DNA of 23,530 nucleotides from a virus (IMGVR_UViG_2534681997_000007:1-23530); one strand, 5' to 3'; shown: positions 4,494-11,561, numbered from the stretch's first letter. Made by a program: numbers and translations. Notes: generated by a model from the sequence alone, not told the origin.

Positions 4494-6713
4494 TTGGCTG
4501 TTCAATTCGCTTATCCGTGGAACGTCCCACGGTCGGCAATCTCCAGCCCATACCTTACTTATGAGCAACAGCATCGTCGCGACCGTATGTTCGCGGCTTT
4601 GCTGCATGCAAAAAAGGTGCTTTCTCTCCAGCCCGACTGCGTACGGTTAGATGTTTATCGCACTGCTGCGGTGCTGGAGCAAAATCAGGGTAGTCAACGA
4701 GCCAATGCATTTTTAATCAGCTTCTGCAAAAAGGCATTGCCGCGTCTTGAACTGGTCGCAAAAAAATACGAATGCGCTGGTATCAACAGCAAGGTATCAA
4801 CCGCTGTTTTTGGAAGTCATTTTGATACTCAGCAAATGCAATATCTGTCGTCACGCATGGTTAATATGGTCGCCCAATATAACCGTCTCCCGGACATGTC
4901 GCGCGCTGATGTTGACCTGTTGGCCGCTGATATTGCTAATTTCATTCGTGGTGAACTTGCCAACATTAATGACCACGGATTCGGCGAGCTTAAAACGCTG
5001 TACACCTGGTATATTCGTGCTGGCTTTATTTCCCTCCAATTCAACGTTATCCCACCACATTGGGAGCGGGTTGAAAAAAAATATGTCGGTGCGGATGAAA
5101 TCGCACCGGCTATCGCCAAAATGTTTAACGATGGGTGGTGGCGCGGTCGTTTGCGCCGTGTTGCAGCTACGTGGCGCGAACACCTGCAAATTGCAGTCGG
5201 CAACGTCAGTAAGAAAAAAAACACTTACGCGAGTAAAAACTGCGTGACTGACTGGCGTGAACAAAAGCGCCGCACTCGTGAATTTCTCAAAGGTCTGGAT
5301 CTCGAAGACGAAGACGGCAACCGTATCAGCCTAATTGAAAAATATGATGGCTCAGTTGCTAACCCTGCGATTCGCCGCTGTGAGCTCATGACCCGCATTC
5401 GTGGGTTTGAAAACATCTGTAATGAGCTCGGTTATGTCGGTGAGTTTTACACTCTAACCGCGCCGTCAAAATATCACGCCACGACTAAAGCCGGTTACCG
5501 TAACAGCAAATGGAGCGGTGCCAGCCCGGCTGACACGCAAAACTATCTAACCGGTATCTGGGCGCGTATCCGTGCCAAACTACATCGGGAAGATGTCCGT
5601 ATTTTCGGTATTCGTGTCGCCGAGCCCCATCACGACGGCACTCCACACTGGCACATGCTGATGTTCATGCTGCCGGAAGATGTTGAATATGTTCGCTCCA
5701 TCGTCCGTAAATACGCATGGAAAGAAGACCGCCACGAACTGAAAAGCGATAAATCCAAAAAAGCACGTTTCCACGCCGAGTCCATTGACCCGGAGAAAGG
5801 CAGCGCAACCGGCTATGTTGCTAAATACATTTCAAAAAATATCGACGGTTATGCTCTCGATGGTGAAACCGATGATGAAAGCGGTGAGCTGCTGAAAGAG
5901 ACAGCCCCCGCCGTTTCAGCATGGGCTGCGCGCTGGCACATCCGTCAGTTTCAGTTTATTGGTGGTGCGCCGGTGACGGTTTACCGTGAGTTGCGTCGCC
6001 TCGCTGATACCGAAACCGCGCACGGTCTGAGCGTTGAGTTTGCCGCCGTCCATGATGCCGCCGACGCTGGTGACTGGGCTGGTTATGTTAATGCTCAAGG
6101 TGGGCCGTTTGTCCGTCGCGATGATTTACAGGTGCGCACACTGTATGAACCGCGTACCGAGCTTAATCAGTACGGTGAGGAAACGGTATGTATTAAGGGG
6201 GTCTACGATTCCTCCATAGGTGCAGGAAGCCCGATTTTAACCCGGCTCACTCAGTGGAAGATTGTTCCGAAGCGTGCTGTTGATTTGGCCGTTGACCTTC
6301 AGGACGGCAAAGCCGTCCCTCGGAGTTCTGTCAATAACTGTACGGGAAGCGAAAGCGATCCACCGGAACTCGATTTATCAAAACCCCTGAGTCGACGTGA
6401 AAGACGAGAGCTGACAAACCGACTCAGGAAGCAAAAGCCAGCAATACGGCGAAAATTCATCCACGGAACGGATGAGCAAAACGCAGCTATAGCTAAAACT
6501 ATCGACGAGATACAACTTACAACTGGCATCACAATCAGCCGGGGCGAAGCCCTGCACCTGATGGCCGGTGGTAAAAGTTGTTTTGATGACAAATGGCTAC
6601 GCGGAACATCAATGGGTGAAATATTTTCCGCTGCGCCATCACATCAGGCTAAAGCCAAGAAAATCCTTAATCGCGTTGCTGCGATGGCTGAAGCAGCAAA
6701 AACCAATACCTGA
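4494..6713 (+). CDS. A: Rolling-circle replication initiator endonuclease gpA (P2 A / 186 RepA family)
   Basis: 739-aa ORF; HUH-type motif PHHDGTPHWHMLMF and catalytic tyrosine motif TGYVAKYISKNIDGYA; ORF-track start 4494 is TTG one base after the upstream stop, first in-frame ATG is 4587, so the start is uncertain. Confidence 0.9.
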   Translation: MAVQFAYPWNVPRSAISSPYLTYEQQHRRDRMFAALLHAKKVLSLQPDCVRLDVYRTAAVLEQNQGSQRANAFLISFCKKALPRLELVAKKYECAGINSKVSTAVFGSHFDTQQMQYLSSRMVNMVAQYNRLPDMSRADVDLLAADIANFIRGELANINDHGFGELKTLYTWYIRAGFISLQFNVIPPHWERVEKKYVGADEIAPAIAKMFNDGWWRGRLRRVAATWREHLQIAVGNVSKKKNTYASKNCVTDWREQKRRTREFLKGLDLEDEDGNRISLIEKYDGSVANPAIRRCELMTRIRGFENICNELGYVGEFYTLTAPSKYHATTKAGYRNSKWSGASPADTQNYLTGIWARIRAKLHREDVRIFGIRVAEPHHDGTPHWHMLMFMLPEDVEYVRSIVRKYAWKEDRHELKSDKSKKARFHAESIDPEKGSATGYVAKYISKNIDGYALDGETDDESGELLKETAPAVSAWAARWHIRQFQFIGGAPVTVYRELRRLADTETAHGLSVEFAAVHDAADAGDWAGYVNAQGGPFVRRDDLQVRTLYEPRTELNQYGEETVCIKGVYDSSIGAGSPILTRLTQWKIVPKRAVDLAVDLQDGKAVPRSSVNNCTGSESDPPELDLSKPLSRRERRELTNRLRKQKPAIRRKFIHGTDEQNAAIAKTIDEIQLTTGITISRGEALHLMAGGKSCFDDKWLRGTSMGEIFSAAPSHQAKAKKILNRVAAMAEAAKTNT

Positions 6714-6731
6714 GTAATTCACATCCATATC

Positions 6732-6765
6732 ATGAACATACAGCAATCACCCTGTTCATTTTTTT
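6732..6765 (+). terminator. Weak terminator-like hairpin after gene A (ATGAACA-N14-TGTTCAT followed by a T7 run)
   Basis: 7-bp AT-rich stem with a large loop, then TTTTTTT; read directly. Confidence 0.3.
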
Positions 6766-6790
6766 CTTCCCATCTTTTGCCAATACGTGC

Positions 6791-6810
6791 TACTGTATAA
6801 ATATACAGTA
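6791..6810. promoter_or_regulatory. LexA box (SOS operator) TACTGTATAAATATACAGTA
   Basis: Perfect CTGT-N8-ACAG core with AT-rich spacer, one mismatch to the 20-bp consensus; 21 bp upstream of the 6831 ATG; a possible -35 TTGCCA lies at 6777-6782. Confidence 0.7.
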
Positions 6811-6830
6811 CACCCTATGGGAGGGATTTC

Positions 6831-7013
6831 ATGGTTGGCGAACATTTCAGCCGAACGCAGCAAAAGTGGGCTTGTGTGCAATTTATTGCCGAGGTATCTC
6901 TGATTGCAAACTGCAAACCAGCAGACTTAAAGCTCGCACTCACTCTCATTGCTGACCTTGCAAACAGCGAAAATAACGAAACAGAAGAAAAAATTTTTTA
7001 TAAGGTTGAATAG
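6831..7013 (+). CDS. Small ORF under the LexA box; candidate SOS-induced protein at the position where phage 186 encodes its antirepressor Tum
   Basis: 60 aa; SD GGGAGGG 7 nt upstream of ATG; no recognisable domain; much shorter than 186 Tum as I recall it. Confidence 0.4.
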   Translation: MVGEHFSRTQQKWACVQFIAEVSLIANCKPADLKLALTLIADLANSENNETEEKIFYKVE

Positions 7014-7195
7014 AAGCATGATTGAACGACTCTCTTTGCAGGTTTTTTGACAGAAGTTAATAGCTTTTTCGTTAACCAAAGAAAAGACTGATAGTACAAA
7101 CGACTAGTAGAATCATCACCATGGCAAAAAGATAGTTTATTTAACTGAAATCACTGGATTTTGATGAAGAAATAGACAGTTTTACATAATGTTTG

Positions 7196-7224
7196 TTGAT
7201 TCACCGAAGACACGAACCTATAAT
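7196..7224 (+). promoter_or_regulatory. Sigma70-type promoter TTGATT-17 bp-TATAAT upstream of the Panacea-domain gene
   Basis: Consensus -10 at 7219-7224, -35 at 7196-7201, 17-bp spacer; ~150 bp upstream of the 7373 ATG. Confidence 0.5.
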
Positions 7225-7308
7225 TCGCGCGCTACCATGCTTATCGTCATTGCTATTTACTGTTATTTGTAAGTATTGACGCTACTAGAGTAGTCAGTTA
7301 GTCTCAAA

Positions 7309-7328
7309 GTAGATGGTTATCCATCTAC
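7309..7328. promoter_or_regulatory. Perfect palindrome GTAGATGG-TTAT-CCATCTAC between promoter and Panacea gene; candidate operator or 5' UTR hairpin
   Basis: 8-bp arms with 4-bp spacer read directly. Confidence 0.4.
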
Positions 7329-7372
7329 ATAAGATGCATCGCTTTTATGCGAGGTTCATCTAAGGAGGTTTT

Positions 7373-7843
7373 ATGTACAACCCGATTTGCATCGTGAACG
7401 AATTTATCGAACGCGCTAAAAAAAACGGGGACAACCTCACCCACATGCAGGCTCAAAAGCTTCTTTATGTTGCTCATGGTTACAGCCTAGCTTTTCTTAA
7501 CGAGCCTTTGCTTGAAGAACCAGTGTGTGCGTGGAGGTACGGTCCGGTAATTCCATCGGTCTACTATGCGCTGCGCCATAATCGTTCAAACCCGATATCA
7601 GAAAAAGCATCATCAACATCGGTAGTACCGGAAAAGATAGACAGTAAAACTGCATCACTTCTGGACATGATTTACGAAACATACGGGAAGCTTTCCGGTG
7701 TTCTCTTATCTGAATTTACTCATCGCCCAGGTACTCCATGGTCACAGGCGATAGAAAAACGAGAAAACATCATCAGTGATGCCAGTATCAAAGACTATTA
7801 TTTGCGTCTAGCAAGACGAGATCCAGTTTGCAACGGATTGTAA
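7373..7843 (+). CDS. Panacea-domain (DUF4065, GepA/SocA-like) protein; candidate antitoxin or immunity component
   Basis: 156 aa; strong SD AAGGAGG 5 nt upstream; motif MQAQKLLYVAHGYSLAFLNEPLLEEPVCAWRYGPVIPSVYYAL matches the DUF4065 core as I recall it. Confidence 0.75.
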   Translation: MYNPICIVNEFIERAKKNGDNLTHMQAQKLLYVAHGYSLAFLNEPLLEEPVCAWRYGPVIPSVYYALRHNRSNPISEKASSTSVVPEKIDSKTASLLDMIYETYGKLSGVLLSEFTHRPGTPWSQAIEKRENIISDASIKDYYLRLARRDPVCNGL

Positions 7844-7860
7844 AATCAGATTATTATTGA

Positions 7861-7885
7861 CCCCGCTTAAACTGCGGGGTTTTTT
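7861..7885 (+). terminator. Intrinsic-terminator-like hairpin CCCCGC-TTAAACT-GCGGGG followed by TTTTTT, ending immediately at the start codon of the next gene
   Basis: 6-bp GC stem, 7-nt loop, 6 T; the only purine-rich SD-like element for the downstream ATG (GGGG, 7876-7879) is inside the 3' arm. Confidence 0.5.
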
Positions 7886-8482
7886 ATGTCGTCCGATAAT
7901 GAAACAATCAAAAATCTGATGAAAGAGGCTATACAGAGTCATGTTACTGATCTCTTCAAATCTCTTGATGTAGGCCCTAAACCAAAGCCGACAGAAAGAT
8001 CCTCTCCCGCCAATGATGACCCCGAAGCAAACCTTTCTGCTGAAGACAAAGCCAAAAAAGAAGAACAGGCTTTTGATTCGCCTACTGATGATGAGCACGA
8101 AGAGTTGCAAGGTCTTGCATACTGGAGTCTGGAGCACAGGCGTCGGATAGACTCTCTTACAATTCAAAAAACACAAGAAGAAATTGTACGTATCTCTTGT
8201 GAAAACGACGACCTTAGGGCTAAAACAAAGAACAACCATGCAGTTGCCCGTGGCCGTCAAATAGACAACAGACTGCGTTTACAATTAGCTGCTGCAACCT
8301 TTAAGTTCATGCAGTATTGGTGTGGTTTTGTCGCTTTCATTGTTGCTTGGTATGTATTCGCCCACTATGGCAAACCTGAAAAAGAAGTCATCATTGCACT
8401 ACTCGGAACCAGCACAATAAGTATTATTGGTTTAGTTGGTTTTGTAGTTAGCGGTTTATTTAAATCAAAAAAAGATGAATAG
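7886..8482 (+). CDS. Small membrane protein with acidic N-terminal region and two C-terminal transmembrane helices; candidate toxin/abortive-infection effector
   Basis: 198 aa; hydrophobic segments FKFMQYWCGFVAFIVAWYVFAHY and VIIALLGTSTISIIGLVGFVVSGLF; N-terminal ~130 aa rich in D/E/K; AT-rich. Confidence 0.65.
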   Translation: MSSDNETIKNLMKEAIQSHVTDLFKSLDVGPKPKPTERSSPANDDPEANLSAEDKAKKEEQAFDSPTDDEHEELQGLAYWSLEHRRRIDSLTIQKTQEEIVRISCENDDLRAKTKNNHAVARGRQIDNRLRLQLAAATFKFMQYWCGFVAFIVAWYVFAHYGKPEKEVIIALLGTSTISIIGLVGFVVSGLFKSKKDE

Positions 8483-8532
8483 CACAGCATACCTAAAACA
8501 GGCTAACCCCACTGAAGAAAAACTATTTTTTT

Positions 8533-8574
8533 GTGCCAGCAGAGTTGAACAACTCGCACCACGGGGCGTTAGTT
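8533..8574 (+). repeat. Left copy of an imperfect ~42-bp direct repeat (core GTTGAACAAC...GGCGTTAGT)
   Basis: 31 of 42 positions identical to 8938-8979, including exact 10-mer and 9-mer blocks in the same register. Confidence 0.35.
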
Positions 8575-8696
8575 CTGCCTTTCAAAGTTTCTCGATGTGT
8601 TATTGATTACACACCCGTGATGAATGGGACGTTACCTTGGCGGGTTTTATAGTGGCGCTTTGGCAGCACTAAATAAAATTCATTGAAGGCGATAAT

Positions 8697-8906
8697 ATGC
8701 ATCGACTACCGGGCGAGATTCCGCAGCACAAAACTAAAAGCATACAACTTATGGCTATCGTTCATCGTCTGCAGACGATAATGGTCAATGAGAACCTGAC
8801 TCCAGCAGAGCTAGTCGGGTGTGCAGAAATAGTCAGGGATAATTACGGCAAGCTGGATAATATCAGCAGACCGACACAATACTCACCTCCACCACGTCGG
8901 CGATAG
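8697..8906 (+). CDS. Small hypothetical ORF between the repeat copies
   Basis: 69 aa; ATG with weak SD GAAGG; no recognisable domain. Confidence 0.3.
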   Translation: MHRLPGEIPQHKTKSIQLMAIVHRLQTIMVNENLTPAELVGCAEIVRDNYGKLDNISRPTQYSPPPRRR

Positions 8907-8917
8907 CAAACGCCGTC

Positions 8918-8942
8918 AGCGCTGAAACTCGCTTTCAGTGCT
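8918..8942. other. Stem-loop AGCGCTGAAA-CTCGC-TTTCAGTGCT between convergent genes
   Basis: 10-bp stem with one G-U pair; no U-tract on either side, so not a canonical terminator. Confidence 0.35.
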
Positions 8943-8979
8943 GGCGGGGTTGAACAACGAGCTACGCGAGGCGTTAGTC
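8938..8979 (+). repeat. Right copy of the imperfect ~42-bp direct repeat; overlaps the stop codon of the HNH gene
   Basis: See left copy at 8533-8574. Confidence 0.35.
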
Positions 8980-9852
8980 GAATTTTACAGGCGACAATGG
9001 TTGTTTTAATTCTTTATCGTGGAAATGTTTGTAGCGTGGATCCTTACGAGCCTCATCGGAAAATACCGATCGATTATCTTCTATCCTAAGATGGCCCGAG
9101 TCTAATAAACGATGTAGGTCTGAAGCAAGTGCAATACCGTTTTCAACACTTGGCGCTCCGCCTGCCGCGTGGCTTAAAATGTGACACGCATCAATCGCAA
9201 AGCGAGAGCCCGTAATTGCGCAACATCCCCTCCAATTGGCTAATACGTCCTTTCTGAACCGGCCTTGAGCTTTTCGTATTTTTGTCAGCGAATAACCATC
9301 TTCAACATATGAACGCTGCTCGAATGTAGGTGATGGTTCGGTTATCTGGGGTAATTGTTGCAAACCATTCTGGTTAACCTTAAATTCTTCCCAAAGATGC
9401 TTACTAACTATTTTACCTTGGCGAGCGCACCAGTTGGTAAAATCTCTCTTTTCGTATTCATCTAAAGACGCCAGCCATTCGCGTAATTCAGAAGTGGCTA
9501 AAACATTTTGATGTAATTGACGATTTTGTGGCAGTGGTGCCAACCTCTCTTTTTTCTCGCCTCGCCGGTAAGGGGGAAGTTTCAATGTGTCCTTCATTGA
9601 AATCGTGCCAGCTGCGTTGGTTCGGACGCTGAATTGACCAGCATACTCAACTTTTTTAGCAGTTGTGGGAGTTGTTGGCTTTCTGTTATTAGCCATCCAA
9701 CGCTGTACTTGGTGCAAGACTTCACTAGCTTCCAGCCCCTTACTTATCAATTCTTTGACATATTTTTTAACCTCTTGTTTATTTGGTTGGTATTCGAATA
9801 AATACGGTGAAAGCTTTAAAATTTCTTTCATTGAAGTTTTTGTTTCAGCCAT
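8974..9852 (-). CDS. HNH-endonuclease-domain protein with ~200-aa N-terminal domain of unknown function; candidate defence nuclease
   Basis: Start at the Met of MAETKT (9852) preceded by GGGGGGA; C-terminal motif CCAITGSRFAIDACHILSHAAGGAPSVENGIALASDLHRLLDSGHLRIED, HNH_2-like as recalled; AT-rich. Confidence 0.75.
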   Translation of the reverse strand: MAETKTSMKEILKLSPYLFEYQPNKQEVKKYVKELISKGLEASEVLHQVQRWMANNRKPTTPTTAKKVEYAGQFSVRTNAAGTISMKDTLKLPPYRRGEKKERLAPLPQNRQLHQNVLATSELREWLASLDEYEKRDFTNWCARQGKIVSKHLWEEFKVNQNGLQQLPQITEPSPTFEQRSYVEDGYSLTKIRKAQGRFRKDVLANWRGCCAITGSRFAIDACHILSHAAGGAPSVENGIALASDLHRLLDSGHLRIEDNRSVFSDEARKDPRYKHFHDKELKQPLSPVKFD

Positions 9853-10028
9853 AAATCCCCCCATTTTAATTTTCTAAAAATGCACTTAATGTCATTTTTC
9901 TCAGCGTGCATTCATGGTGCATGGTTTTGCATGCGAATAATGTCTCATTTTTATGGGTGCGCCACCAGTGCTGGCGCGGATCCAGAGTAATCATGCAACT
10001 GCATTAAAACCGCCCCATAAAGCGGGCA

Positions 10029-10047
10029 GGCGTGGCGGGGAAAGCAT
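10029..10047. other. cos site (19-nt cohesive-end sequence GGCGTGGCGGGGAAAGCAT)
   Basis: Matches the phage 186 cohesive end as I recall it (P2 differs at two positions); lies between the cargo island and portal gene Q as expected for a P2-like prophage. Confidence 0.6.
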
Positions 10048-10057
10048 TGCGCGCCAG

Positions 10058-10158
10058 CGGTGGTGCGTATTATTAAAAATTATCGTCTGAGAACGTCGTG
10101 ACGGCGCTGTAGTGGCCGGGTGTGATCGTGGGCGCGTGGTGCGTCTGTGGCGTGGTGC
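10058..10158. repeat. Three copies of (C/G)GTGGTGC(G) within 100 bp on the Q-proximal side of cos; candidate terminase recognition repeats
   Basis: CGGTGGTGCGT at 10058-10068, CGTGGTGCG at 10135-10143, CGTGGTGC at 10151-10158. Confidence 0.35.
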
Positions 10159-10251
10159 TAAAGGATGGGATCAGTTGCACAATTTTACGGTTTCGCTTTG
10201 GCTAATATCCATATTGAGACTTTATGTTCCCCACAACAGTTGGAGGCTTTA

Positions 10252-10476
10252 ATGGATAACTATCATATTACAAAAGATGGCGATAAGTGGAAGTTGCAAA
10301 AAGAGGGCAATGATCGCCCTAGCAAGACCGCGACCACAAAGGCCGAGCTGATTAAAACAACATCTGAGTTTATGTCGAACAAAACAGGCTCGGTCAAAAT
10401 TCACAAGGAAGATGGGAAAATTCAGGAAGAACGCACTTATCAGAGAAAAGATGATCCTAAAAAGTCTAAAGGCTAA
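10252..10476 (+). CDS. Small basic protein, DUF2188-like, between cos and the portal gene
   Basis: Start at ATG 10252 (MDNYHITKDGDKWKLQKEGNDRPSK...) with SD GGAGG 5 nt upstream; ORF-track start 10165 lacks an SD. Confidence 0.55.
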   Translation: MDNYHITKDGDKWKLQKEGNDRPSKTATTKAELIKTTSEFMSNKTGSVKIHKEDGKIQEERTYQRKDDPKKSKG

Positions 10477-10484
10477 CATAGCAA

Positions 10485-10505
10485 AAGCCGCCAAAATGGC
10501 GGCTT
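10485..10505 (-). terminator. Hairpin AAGCCGCC-AAAAT-GGCGGCTT between convergent genes; best fits termination of the Q/P operon
   Basis: 8-bp stem; on the minus strand it is followed by TTTGCTATGTT; sits 10 bp beyond the Q stop. Confidence 0.5.
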
Positions 10506-10514
10506 AAAAGGTGA

Positions 10515-11561
10515 TTATTCCGGGTTGTCGAGTGTGTACTCTTTGAACCTGATGACCTCCATACCGAGCCAGTCGTTTACCTCCCTGAACCTATCCTGCA
10601 GGGGTGACAGCTCATTACGCACAAATACCTTTGCCACCTTCTCAACGTCACCGAGTGAACCGATATTCTCGGGCTTGCCGCCCATGAGCTGGAACGGCAC
10701 GCGGTGCGCGTCCATCAGGTCGGCGGCGCTGGCTTTCTTAATGTTGAAAAAGTCATCCTTTGTGGCGACCTCGCTCAGTGGCACGATTTTGATGCCGTCC
10801 GGTTTTCCGCCGGGGGCGTAGAAAAACAGGTTCTTAAAGTTGCCGAGTCCCTTCGAGTTACGCATCGCCTCGCGCAGCGATTCGACGTCGGTCGCACTTT
10901 GCGCCGGGTCAGTCACATACATGATGTAGCCTGCGTGCGCGCCGTTCTGATAATACTTGCGGCGGAACAGCGTCGCGGATTCATTCAGCCAAGCGGAATT
11001 AAGCGCGCTGAGATATTCCGGCAGACCGTAAATCTCCTGATTAATGTCGGGCTCCAGCAGGTGAAACACGGTATCAGGCGCGAACTCGTGCGGCTGGGTG
11101 AAGTTTTCCACAAACCAGAAAATCGAATCGTCGACTCCGCGTCGGGTGTATTTGGCTGGCGAGGCCAGCAGTTTGATTAACTGGCCGGTGACGCTGTGGC
11201 GCTGCTCAAGAAAGGCGTTACCGAATACCAGATAATCGAGCGCAAAGCGGCTGAAATCCTGACGGGATAACAACGGGTGCGGAATGTAGGTGCTCGCGAG
11301 CACGTTACGCTTAACATAAATTGGCGAGCTGTGATGCACGGCAGAGCGCAGGCTCTTTGCCAGCCCTGAGAAGCTGACCGGCGGCTCGTACCATTTGCCG
11401 TTACTGATGCACTCGACGTAATCCAGAATGTCGCGCTTATCGAGTACCGGCACCGGCTCGCCGAAGGTGAACGCTGTCGTTTTTGGCGGTGCGCTGGCGG
11501 TCAGTTGTTGTGGTTTGCTGGCCTTTTGTGCGTTGGCTTTACGGGATTTTTGTTTACCCAT
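10515..11561 (-). CDS. Q: Portal protein gpQ
   Basis: 348 aa, P2 Q-sized, basic N-terminus MGKQKSRKANAQK; position next to cos and downstream of terminase P. Confidence 0.9.
   Translation of the reverse strand: MGKQKSRKANAQKASKPQQLTASAPPKTTAFTFGEPVPVLDKRDILDYVECISNGKWYEPPVSFSGLAKSLRSAVHHSSPIYVKRNVLASTYIPHPLLSRQDFSRFALDYLVFGNAFLEQRHSVTGQLIKLLASPAKYTRRGVDDSIFWFVENFTQPHEFAPDTVFHLLEPDINQEIYGLPEYLSALNSAWLNESATLFRRKYYQNGAHAGYIMYVTDPAQSATDVESLREAMRNSKGLGNFKNLFFYAPGGKPDGIKIVPLSEVATKDDFFNIKKASAADLMDAHRVPFQLMGGKPENIGSLGDVEKVAKVFVRNELSPLQDRFREVNDWLGMEVIRFKEYTLDNPE

Follow-up and report, generated by a model that had tools for sequence, protein, structure and literature searches.

Two adjacent genes on the plus strand of a 23,530-nucleotide stretch of viral DNA (hereafter referred to as the window), panA at positions 7373-7843 and panT at positions 7886-8482, very probably constitute a diverged PanAT pore-toxin/antitoxin pair of toxin cluster T3 carried as cargo by a P2-like prophage, as judged from the similarity of both gene products to an experimentally tested pair of E. 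coli. A first-pass annotation of the window had regarded the membrane protein encoded by the second open reading frame (ORF2) as the effector and the Panacea protein encoded by the first (ORF1) as its neutraliser, and this assignment of roles is supported by homology to the tested pair. The two open reading frames, their coordinates and strand, the motif attributed to ORF1 and the strong ribosome-binding site ahead of it were all found as described there.

ORF1 encodes a standalone Panacea (DUF4065) protein of 156 amino acids, assigned as an antitoxin from Pfam, phrog and homology matches. The Pfam model PF13274 (SocA_Panacea) matches it with an E-value of 1.3e-18 and a score of 68.4 bits against a cut-off of 25.7, in agreement with the family proposed in the first-pass annotation, and phrog_1281 matches with an E-value of 4e-46. 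At NCBI, the exact ORF1 sequence is named as a DUF4065/Panacea/SocA-domain antitoxin. The Shine-Dalgarno sequence AAGGAGG, read from the sequence at 7362-7368 on the plus strand, is located 4 nt ahead of the ATG. The Panacea domain is common to SocA, and the best NCBIfam match of ORF1 is SocA_antitoxin (NF047745), which could point to a type VI system of the SocA/SocB kind, with ORF1 serving as a ClpXP adaptor that sends the toxin to degradation and not as a protein that blocks it by binding. However, the NCBIfam score of 91.7 falls below the equivalog cut-off of 190 and ORF2 is a membrane protein, unlike the non-membrane partner of the SocB type. In the assays of Kurata 2022 (PMC8832971), moreover, neither ClpXP nor Lon was needed for neutralisation by PanA, and a degradation mechanism for the present pair is considered very improbable.

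ORF2 encodes a putative membrane toxin of 198 amino acids, assigned to cluster T3 by homology, in which an acidic N-terminus and a long helix precede a C-terminal membrane hairpin of two helices. The acidic N-terminal region and the two hydrophobic helices noticed at the first pass are borne out by charge analysis, with a pI of 4.4 for residues 1-75, by hydropathy, which places the C-terminal hydrophobic helices at about 139-160 and 166-191 with the second reaching a Kyte-Doolittle value of 2.25, and by the helices of an AlphaFold2 model. The model, obtained with 36 homologues, has a mean pLDDT of 78 and predicts helices at 4-27 and 52-64, separated by a disordered acidic linker. These are followed by a very long helix (68-159), which continues into the first membrane segment, and, after a short loop, by the second membrane helix (166-191). 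Database searches identified 76 relatives of ORF2 in the Enterobacterales and Vibrio, and the phage protein family of unknown function phrog_13343 matches it with an E-value of 3e-81. In the alignment of 36 homologues, the N-terminal half is variable and charged and the C-terminal module is strongly conserved, with the motif GxxIDNxLR, the invariant FMxxWCxFVA of the first membrane helix and an almost invariant LLGTSTISIVGLVGFVVSGLFK in the second, to which the invariant motif GLVGFVVSGLF belongs. The spacing of small residues in the second helix suggests helix-helix packing within an oligomer.

Comparison of ORF2 with Pfam and NCBIfam, holin families included, gave no match, nor did a sequence search against solved structures. 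A Foldseek search of the model against the PDB returned only noise (E > 7), as is expected for long helices. A role as a holin was considered for ORF2 and rejected, as no holin family matches and the gene is present in the hotspot between gpA and cos, away from the lysis genes.

Sequence searches with the two proteins led to the same E. coli locus. ORF1 is 43% identical over its full length to WP_000287252.1, a validated PanA (E 9e-46). ORF2 is 43% identical to WP_000019186.1, a protein of 182 amino acids found in the PanT position of a T3 pair (BLASTP E 2e-38); 34 of the last 37 aligned residues are the same, and the N-terminal 40 residues of ORF2 have no alignment to the E. coli protein. The E. 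coli cluster of 182-aa proteins (P0034) is also present among the relatives of ORF2, with an E-value of 7.5e-25. The gene for the 182-aa protein is located 22 nt downstream of a gene for a Panacea protein of 157 amino acids, in a lambdoid prophage, at its edge next to zur/dinF, and in annotated RefSeq genomes this Panacea gene is WP_000287252.1. In the six genomes considered, the gene that follows WP_000287252.1 encodes one of four near-identical alleles of 182 amino acids (WP_000019186.1, WP_000019187.1, WP_021563277.1 and WP_000089360.1).

The STEC O31 pair as listed in Kurata 2022 (PMC8832971) consists of the antitoxin WP_000287252.1 and the toxin WP_000019185.1; the entry gives "Membrane" as the mode of action, T3 as the toxin cluster, the order antitoxin-then-toxin and an intergenic distance of 22 nt, and the locus is flagged 'NotPhage'. 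From its position and the 22-nt spacing, the listed toxin WP_000019185.1 would be another allele of the 182-aa family. According to that paper, STEC O31 PanT is toxic, causes strong depolarisation and entry of SYTOX Green, interpreted as the formation of large pores, shuts down transcription, translation and replication indiscriminately, and is neutralised by PanA. Pull-downs described there indicated complexes between cognate PanA and PanT proteins, the pairs used being left unspecified in the text consulted. The first-pass annotation could match ORF2 to no named toxin family and suggested that the pairing might be undescribed. Neither statement holds, because both proteins are 43% identical to the tested PanA and PanT, and the genes of E. 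coli are already labelled "PanA antitoxin" and "PanT toxin" in the GenBank record of phage PhiR47_1.

The window pair resembles STEC O31 PanA-PanT in several respects: a standalone Panacea antitoxin of 156-157 amino acids precedes a toxin of about 180-200 amino acids encoded on the same strand, the toxin combines a charged N-terminus with a pair of C-terminal membrane helices, of which the second is nearly identical, and both pairs are prophage cargo. The two differ in that the STEC O31 pair is found at a lambdoid prophage edge by zur/dinF, with a spacer of 21-22 nt, an AGGGA Shine-Dalgarno sequence and no hairpin, whereas the genes of the window pair, in the P2 gpA-cos hotspot, are separated by 42 nt that contain a promoter-like element and a terminator-like hairpin with covariation; in addition, the N-terminal parts of the two toxins are not alignable. 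A more distant parallel is PanT(D11/T12):PanA of Bartonella choladocola (apis), in which a standalone Panacea protein likewise neutralises a pore-forming toxin with a charged N-terminus and C-terminal membrane helices (Kurata 2022; Ernits 2023). The Bartonella pair belongs to a separate sequence cluster, its homology to T3 being only suspected by its authors, and it is likened to the window pair here by description. RosmerTA (RmrT/RmrA) is also a toxin-antitoxin pair with a membrane-depolarising toxin, and anti-phage activity has been shown for RmrTA of the Gordonia phage Kita; however, its antitoxin (an ImmA-type protease/HTH protein) and its toxin are unrelated to those of the window.

We infer that the window pair behaves like its E. 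coli homologue. PanT would enter the inner membrane via its C-terminal helical hairpin, would probably oligomerise through the invariant, small-residue-rich GLVGFVVSGLF helix, and would thereby depolarise and permeabilise the cell. PanA, as a standalone Panacea domain, would bind the cytoplasmic part of PanT and keep it harmless, which would correspond to type II neutralisation by direct binding. In the Bartonella pair, a standalone Panacea domain neutralises directly, and the predicted Panacea contact comprises the N-terminal region of the toxin and the helix ahead of its membrane segment (Ernits 2023, PMC10440598).

To examine the association of the two genes, which the first-pass annotation had proposed as a check, 92 related loci were assembled, drawing on look-ups of exact proteins, contigs from one genome per species, annotated records and IMG/VR. 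In all 90 loci with upstream sequence, the ORF2 homologue is immediately preceded by a Panacea open reading frame in the same orientation; the exceptions concern two loci truncated by the end of a contig and a third in which the toxin gene is incomplete. The linkage extends from the Enterobacterales (E. coli, Enterobacter, Pantoea, Pectobacterium, Dickeya, Erwinia, Buttiauxella and Providencia) to Vibrio, Aeromonas and the Alphaproteobacteria (Caulobacter, Methylocystis and Niveispirillum). The pairing of PanA with PanT is far beyond chance. The pairwise identities of PanA and PanT are correlated over 42 distinct pairs (Spearman 0.70), and the two proteins are inherited as a unit.

The limits of this unit could be defined by comparison with Enterobacter P2-like phages, the backbones of which are about 67% identical. 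Homology to these otherwise diverged phages begins exactly at 7196, and the mobile cassette extends over 7196-8482, from the -35 element of the predicted panA promoter to the panT stop codon. In the closest relatives (L001-L004), homology runs to 8553 and is followed by different genes, so that the HNH gene to the right of the PanAT cassette is a separate cassette. As a self-contained unit, the PanAT cassette was found in P2-like, lambdoid and island contexts. The exact cassette at 7373-8482 appears to be rare: a near-identity DNA search with 7100-8600 gave no match in phage records and in 5,426 complete RefSeq E. coli genomes, and a search in distant mode recovered only a 119-nt stretch of panA. 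At NCBI, E. coli is given for the exact ORF1 and ORF2 proteins and Citrobacter for near-identical ones.

The cassette begins with a predicted sigma-70 promoter for panA on the plus strand (TTGATT-17-TATAAT, 7196-7224; 10/12 in a consensus scan), the TATAAT of which is kept across the upstream alignment of 8 loci. Within 7218-7232, this -10 element is followed by a conserved GC-rich sequence, TCGCGCGC, which resembles the discriminators of promoters under stringent control. There may be tandem promoters, since a second conserved motif is present at 7276-7304, with TTGACG followed after 17 nt by TAGTCT. The panA leader also contains, at 7310-7327, a 7-bp palindrome (TAGATGG-TTAT-CCATCTA), and the Enterobacter homologue carries at the same site a different yet self-complementary sequence (GACGA...TCGTC); the palindrome may form an RNA structure or serve as an operator.

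The 42-nt spacer between panA and panT is filled by a terminator-like hairpin at 7859-7881, a feature absent from the first-pass annotation. As identified in a terminator scan of the plus strand, the hairpin with its T-run occupies 7859-7885: a stem of 8 bp (7859-7866 paired with 7874-7881) with 6 GC pairs and a loop at 7867-7873 is followed by T6, which runs to 7885 and abuts the panT ATG, with a folding energy of -15.3 kcal/mol. A GC-rich stem followed by a T-run on the transcribed strand, as expected of an intrinsic (Rho-independent) terminator, is present. The sole Shine-Dalgarno-like sequence available to panT (GGGG, 7876-7879) is contained within the 3' arm of the hairpin. Rfam gave no match anywhere in the window.

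The hairpin is conserved in the lineage of the P2 hotspot, where it was observed in 22 distinct junctions with spacers of 40-47 nt and with compensated stem variants (ACCCCGC, AGCCTCG, AATCCCG, GGCCCCG and AACCCCA). In an alignment of 19 junctions, 97.1% of the cells are paired and 7 of the 9 pairs show compensatory double changes, against a pairing of 28-54% when the partner is slid by 1-3 columns as a control; covariation was also computed on a smaller alignment of 10 sequences. The occurrence of G-U pairs on the plus strand only, a loop of variable length (3-7 nt) and the T-run suggest that the hairpin is an RNA structure of the terminator type. The possibility that the inverted repeat is a DNA operator was rejected, as the stem varies freely with compensatory substitutions and is followed by a T-run.

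A putative internal promoter for panT was picked up on the plus strand by a blind consensus scan at 7828-7857, overlapping the last codons of panA and the spacer, with a -35 element TTGCAA (7828-7833), an 18-nt spacer and a -10 element TATTAT (7852-7857). Each of the 22 distinct junctions of the hairpin type carries the pattern TTGCAx-N17/18-TAnnAT, placed just ahead of the stem and separated from it by 0-1 nt. In the alignment of 19 sequences, TTGC and TA..AT are invariant and the middle two positions of the -10 element vary, as does the neighbouring spacer. Since the -35 element overlaps the codon of a conserved PanA cysteine, part of the conservation of TTGC may be coding; this codon is always TGC after T in the hairpin lineage and TGT, without TTG, in the lambdoid lineage. 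The promoter and terminator roles at the junction are putative, being based on consensus matches and conservation.

The type of junction follows the genomic context: with the exception of a Vibrio island copy, every hairpin-type junction is flanked by P2-type gpA and portal genes. In lambdoid prophages, the spacers are of 21-25 nt with an ordinary Shine-Dalgarno sequence; the validated pair is of this kind and has neither the hairpin nor the promoter-like element. In the alphaproteobacterial copies, panA and panT overlap by 4-32 nt. In the part of the T3 table of Kurata 2022 (PMC8832971) that was available, the spacers are mostly short or overlapping and no other Enterobacterales entry occurs.

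A terminator-like hairpin and a putative separate promoter between the two genes might suggest that a plain terminator parts independent genes, and that ORF2 is a stand-alone membrane protein not neutralised by ORF1, for example in superinfection exclusion or in the timing of holin-like lysis; the location of the Providencia pair between the Q antiterminator and the lysis genes would also suit such a role. Against this, the two genes are adjacent at every locus that could be assessed (90/90) and co-diverge, the homologous E. coli pair has been shown to consist of a toxin and its neutraliser, ORF2 has no holin or other Pfam match, and the distant relatives overlap (-4 to -32 nt), as is typical of coupled expression. 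Independence of the two genes is regarded as very unlikely.

For the toxin-antitoxin pair, the arrangement of the junction suggests that in the P2-hotspot lineage panA and panT would be expressed unequally or separately. Transcripts from the promoter at 7196-7224 would mostly end at the hairpin or would mask the panT ribosome-binding site within it. panT would have a weak promoter of its own, with a predicted start about 7 nt past the -10 element, at about 7864-7865. Since this start falls inside the 5' arm, transcripts beginning there could not form the hairpin and would lack it. The operation of the conserved promoter-in-terminator junction in the manner modelled is a reasonable possibility, though placed somewhat below an even chance. 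A little more tentative is the wider proposal that PanAT of the P2 hotspot is wired unlike the operon-type pair: the terminator would insulate the toxin gene, and the embedded promoter would start transcripts in the 5' arm that alone escape termination and expose the ribosome-binding site, making toxin output independent of the antitoxin, possibly with transcriptional interference from the latter, and conceivably providing a switch for abortive infection by the cassette. The conserved hairpin-plus-promoter signal is possibly the one new feature of the locus.

Judged from its gene content, the setting is a P2-like prophage with the PanAT cassette in the gpA-cos hotspot. The first-pass annotation had placed the pair between gene A and cos, and this agrees with the positions of gpA (4494-6713; PF05840, E 2e-130), of a cos-like site, GGCGTGGCGGGGAAAGCAT, at 10029-10047 and of a portal-gene homologue on the minus strand at 10515-11561, identified through Phage_portal in related loci; the portal and terminase open reading frames are on the minus strand from 10515. 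The cos-like site is two mismatches away from the cos sequence of P2. It is contained in a conserved block of about 65 bp (9990-10054) that is 81-88% identical in the otherwise diverged P2-like loci L005, L028, L030 and L044 and that forms the right end of the hotspot, the stretch of low GC content from 6713 to 10500 being the variable hotspot itself.

Other genes are also present in this region of the window. An HNH_2 protein of 296 amino acids is encoded on the minus strand at 8974-9864 (HNH_2, E 2e-8; phrog_31713, E 1e-213); it has a weak match to a family of restriction endonucleases for phosphorothioated DNA, and the gene is possibly a nuclease-type defence gene. In L001-L004, its slot is occupied by two unrelated genes encoding 175 and 118 amino acids. 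Open reading frames of 60 amino acids just past gpA (6831-7013, plus strand), called as a gene in L001-L004, and of 69 amino acids (8697-8906, plus strand; phrog_11386, E 2e-47) are also present. A DUF2188 gene at 10165-10476 (plus strand; E 7e-18; phrog_3220) separates the cos-like site from the portal gene, where cargo is unusual in a P2-like genome.

At related loci, the neighbours of PanAT include a CBASS pair consisting of a DncV-like cyclase and Cap15 (6051-7962 of L036), an RVT_1 reverse transcriptase (6964-8724 of L005), the methylase and specificity subunit of a type I restriction-modification system in a lambdoid context, with the Q antiterminator on one side and the lysis genes on the other (5866-8692 of L035), and, in Vibrio, serine recombinases of an island inserted in a Mg-chelatase-like (comM-type) gene (2588-6409 of L032). 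The P2 gpA-cos region is an established hotspot with tested anti-phage systems (Rousset 2022, PMC9122126; Vassallo 2022, PMC9519451). Table S5 of Rousset 2022 (PMC9122126) lists "DUF4065 + hypothetical" among the P2 loci of E. coli; with its partner WP_001112381, which a distant-mode DNA search did not reach, this entry is alike by description, having the same hotspot and the same two-gene Pfam description, and it does not appear in the table of systems evaluated for defence in that paper.

As inferred from location only, the most likely role of the pair would be the killing or arrest of the lysogen on infection by another phage, i.e. abortive infection or exclusion, and such a defence or exclusion role is plausible. 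Prophage or cassette addiction, an alternative no less classical and compatible with defence, would be a second benefit. In its exclusive form, the alternative holds that PanAT is a purely selfish addiction module that stabilises the prophage or cassette by post-segregational killing and gives no protection from other phages. Classical toxin-antitoxin logic and the movement of the self-contained cassette among P2-like, lambdoid and island contexts are consistent with it, as are the searches for known defence systems, in which PADLOC-DB v2 models gave no match to ORF1 and a marginal match to ORF2 (E 0.003) that was judged spurious; in the literature searched, no paper was found in which a PanAT pair was tested against phages. 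However, it is specifically in the P2 gpA-cos hotspot that the cassette occurs repeatedly, with CBASS, reverse-transcriptase and nuclease genes as neighbours; tested defence systems are known from this hotspot through published screens, and addiction does not exclude defence. Addiction as the only function is considered rather unlikely.

Recognition that the pair is not an undescribed one but a diverged PanAT, from a cluster for which the formation of membrane pores has already been demonstrated, removes a false lead. Repeated occurrence in the P2 defence hotspot, with CBASS, reverse-transcriptase and nuclease genes nearby, makes PanAT a sensible candidate for a test of phage protection. The authors of the Panacea work themselves ask what triggers toxin release; in the lineage of the P2 hotspot, the conserved hairpin-plus-promoter junction could account for the setting of toxin and antitoxin levels as well as for the release of the toxin.
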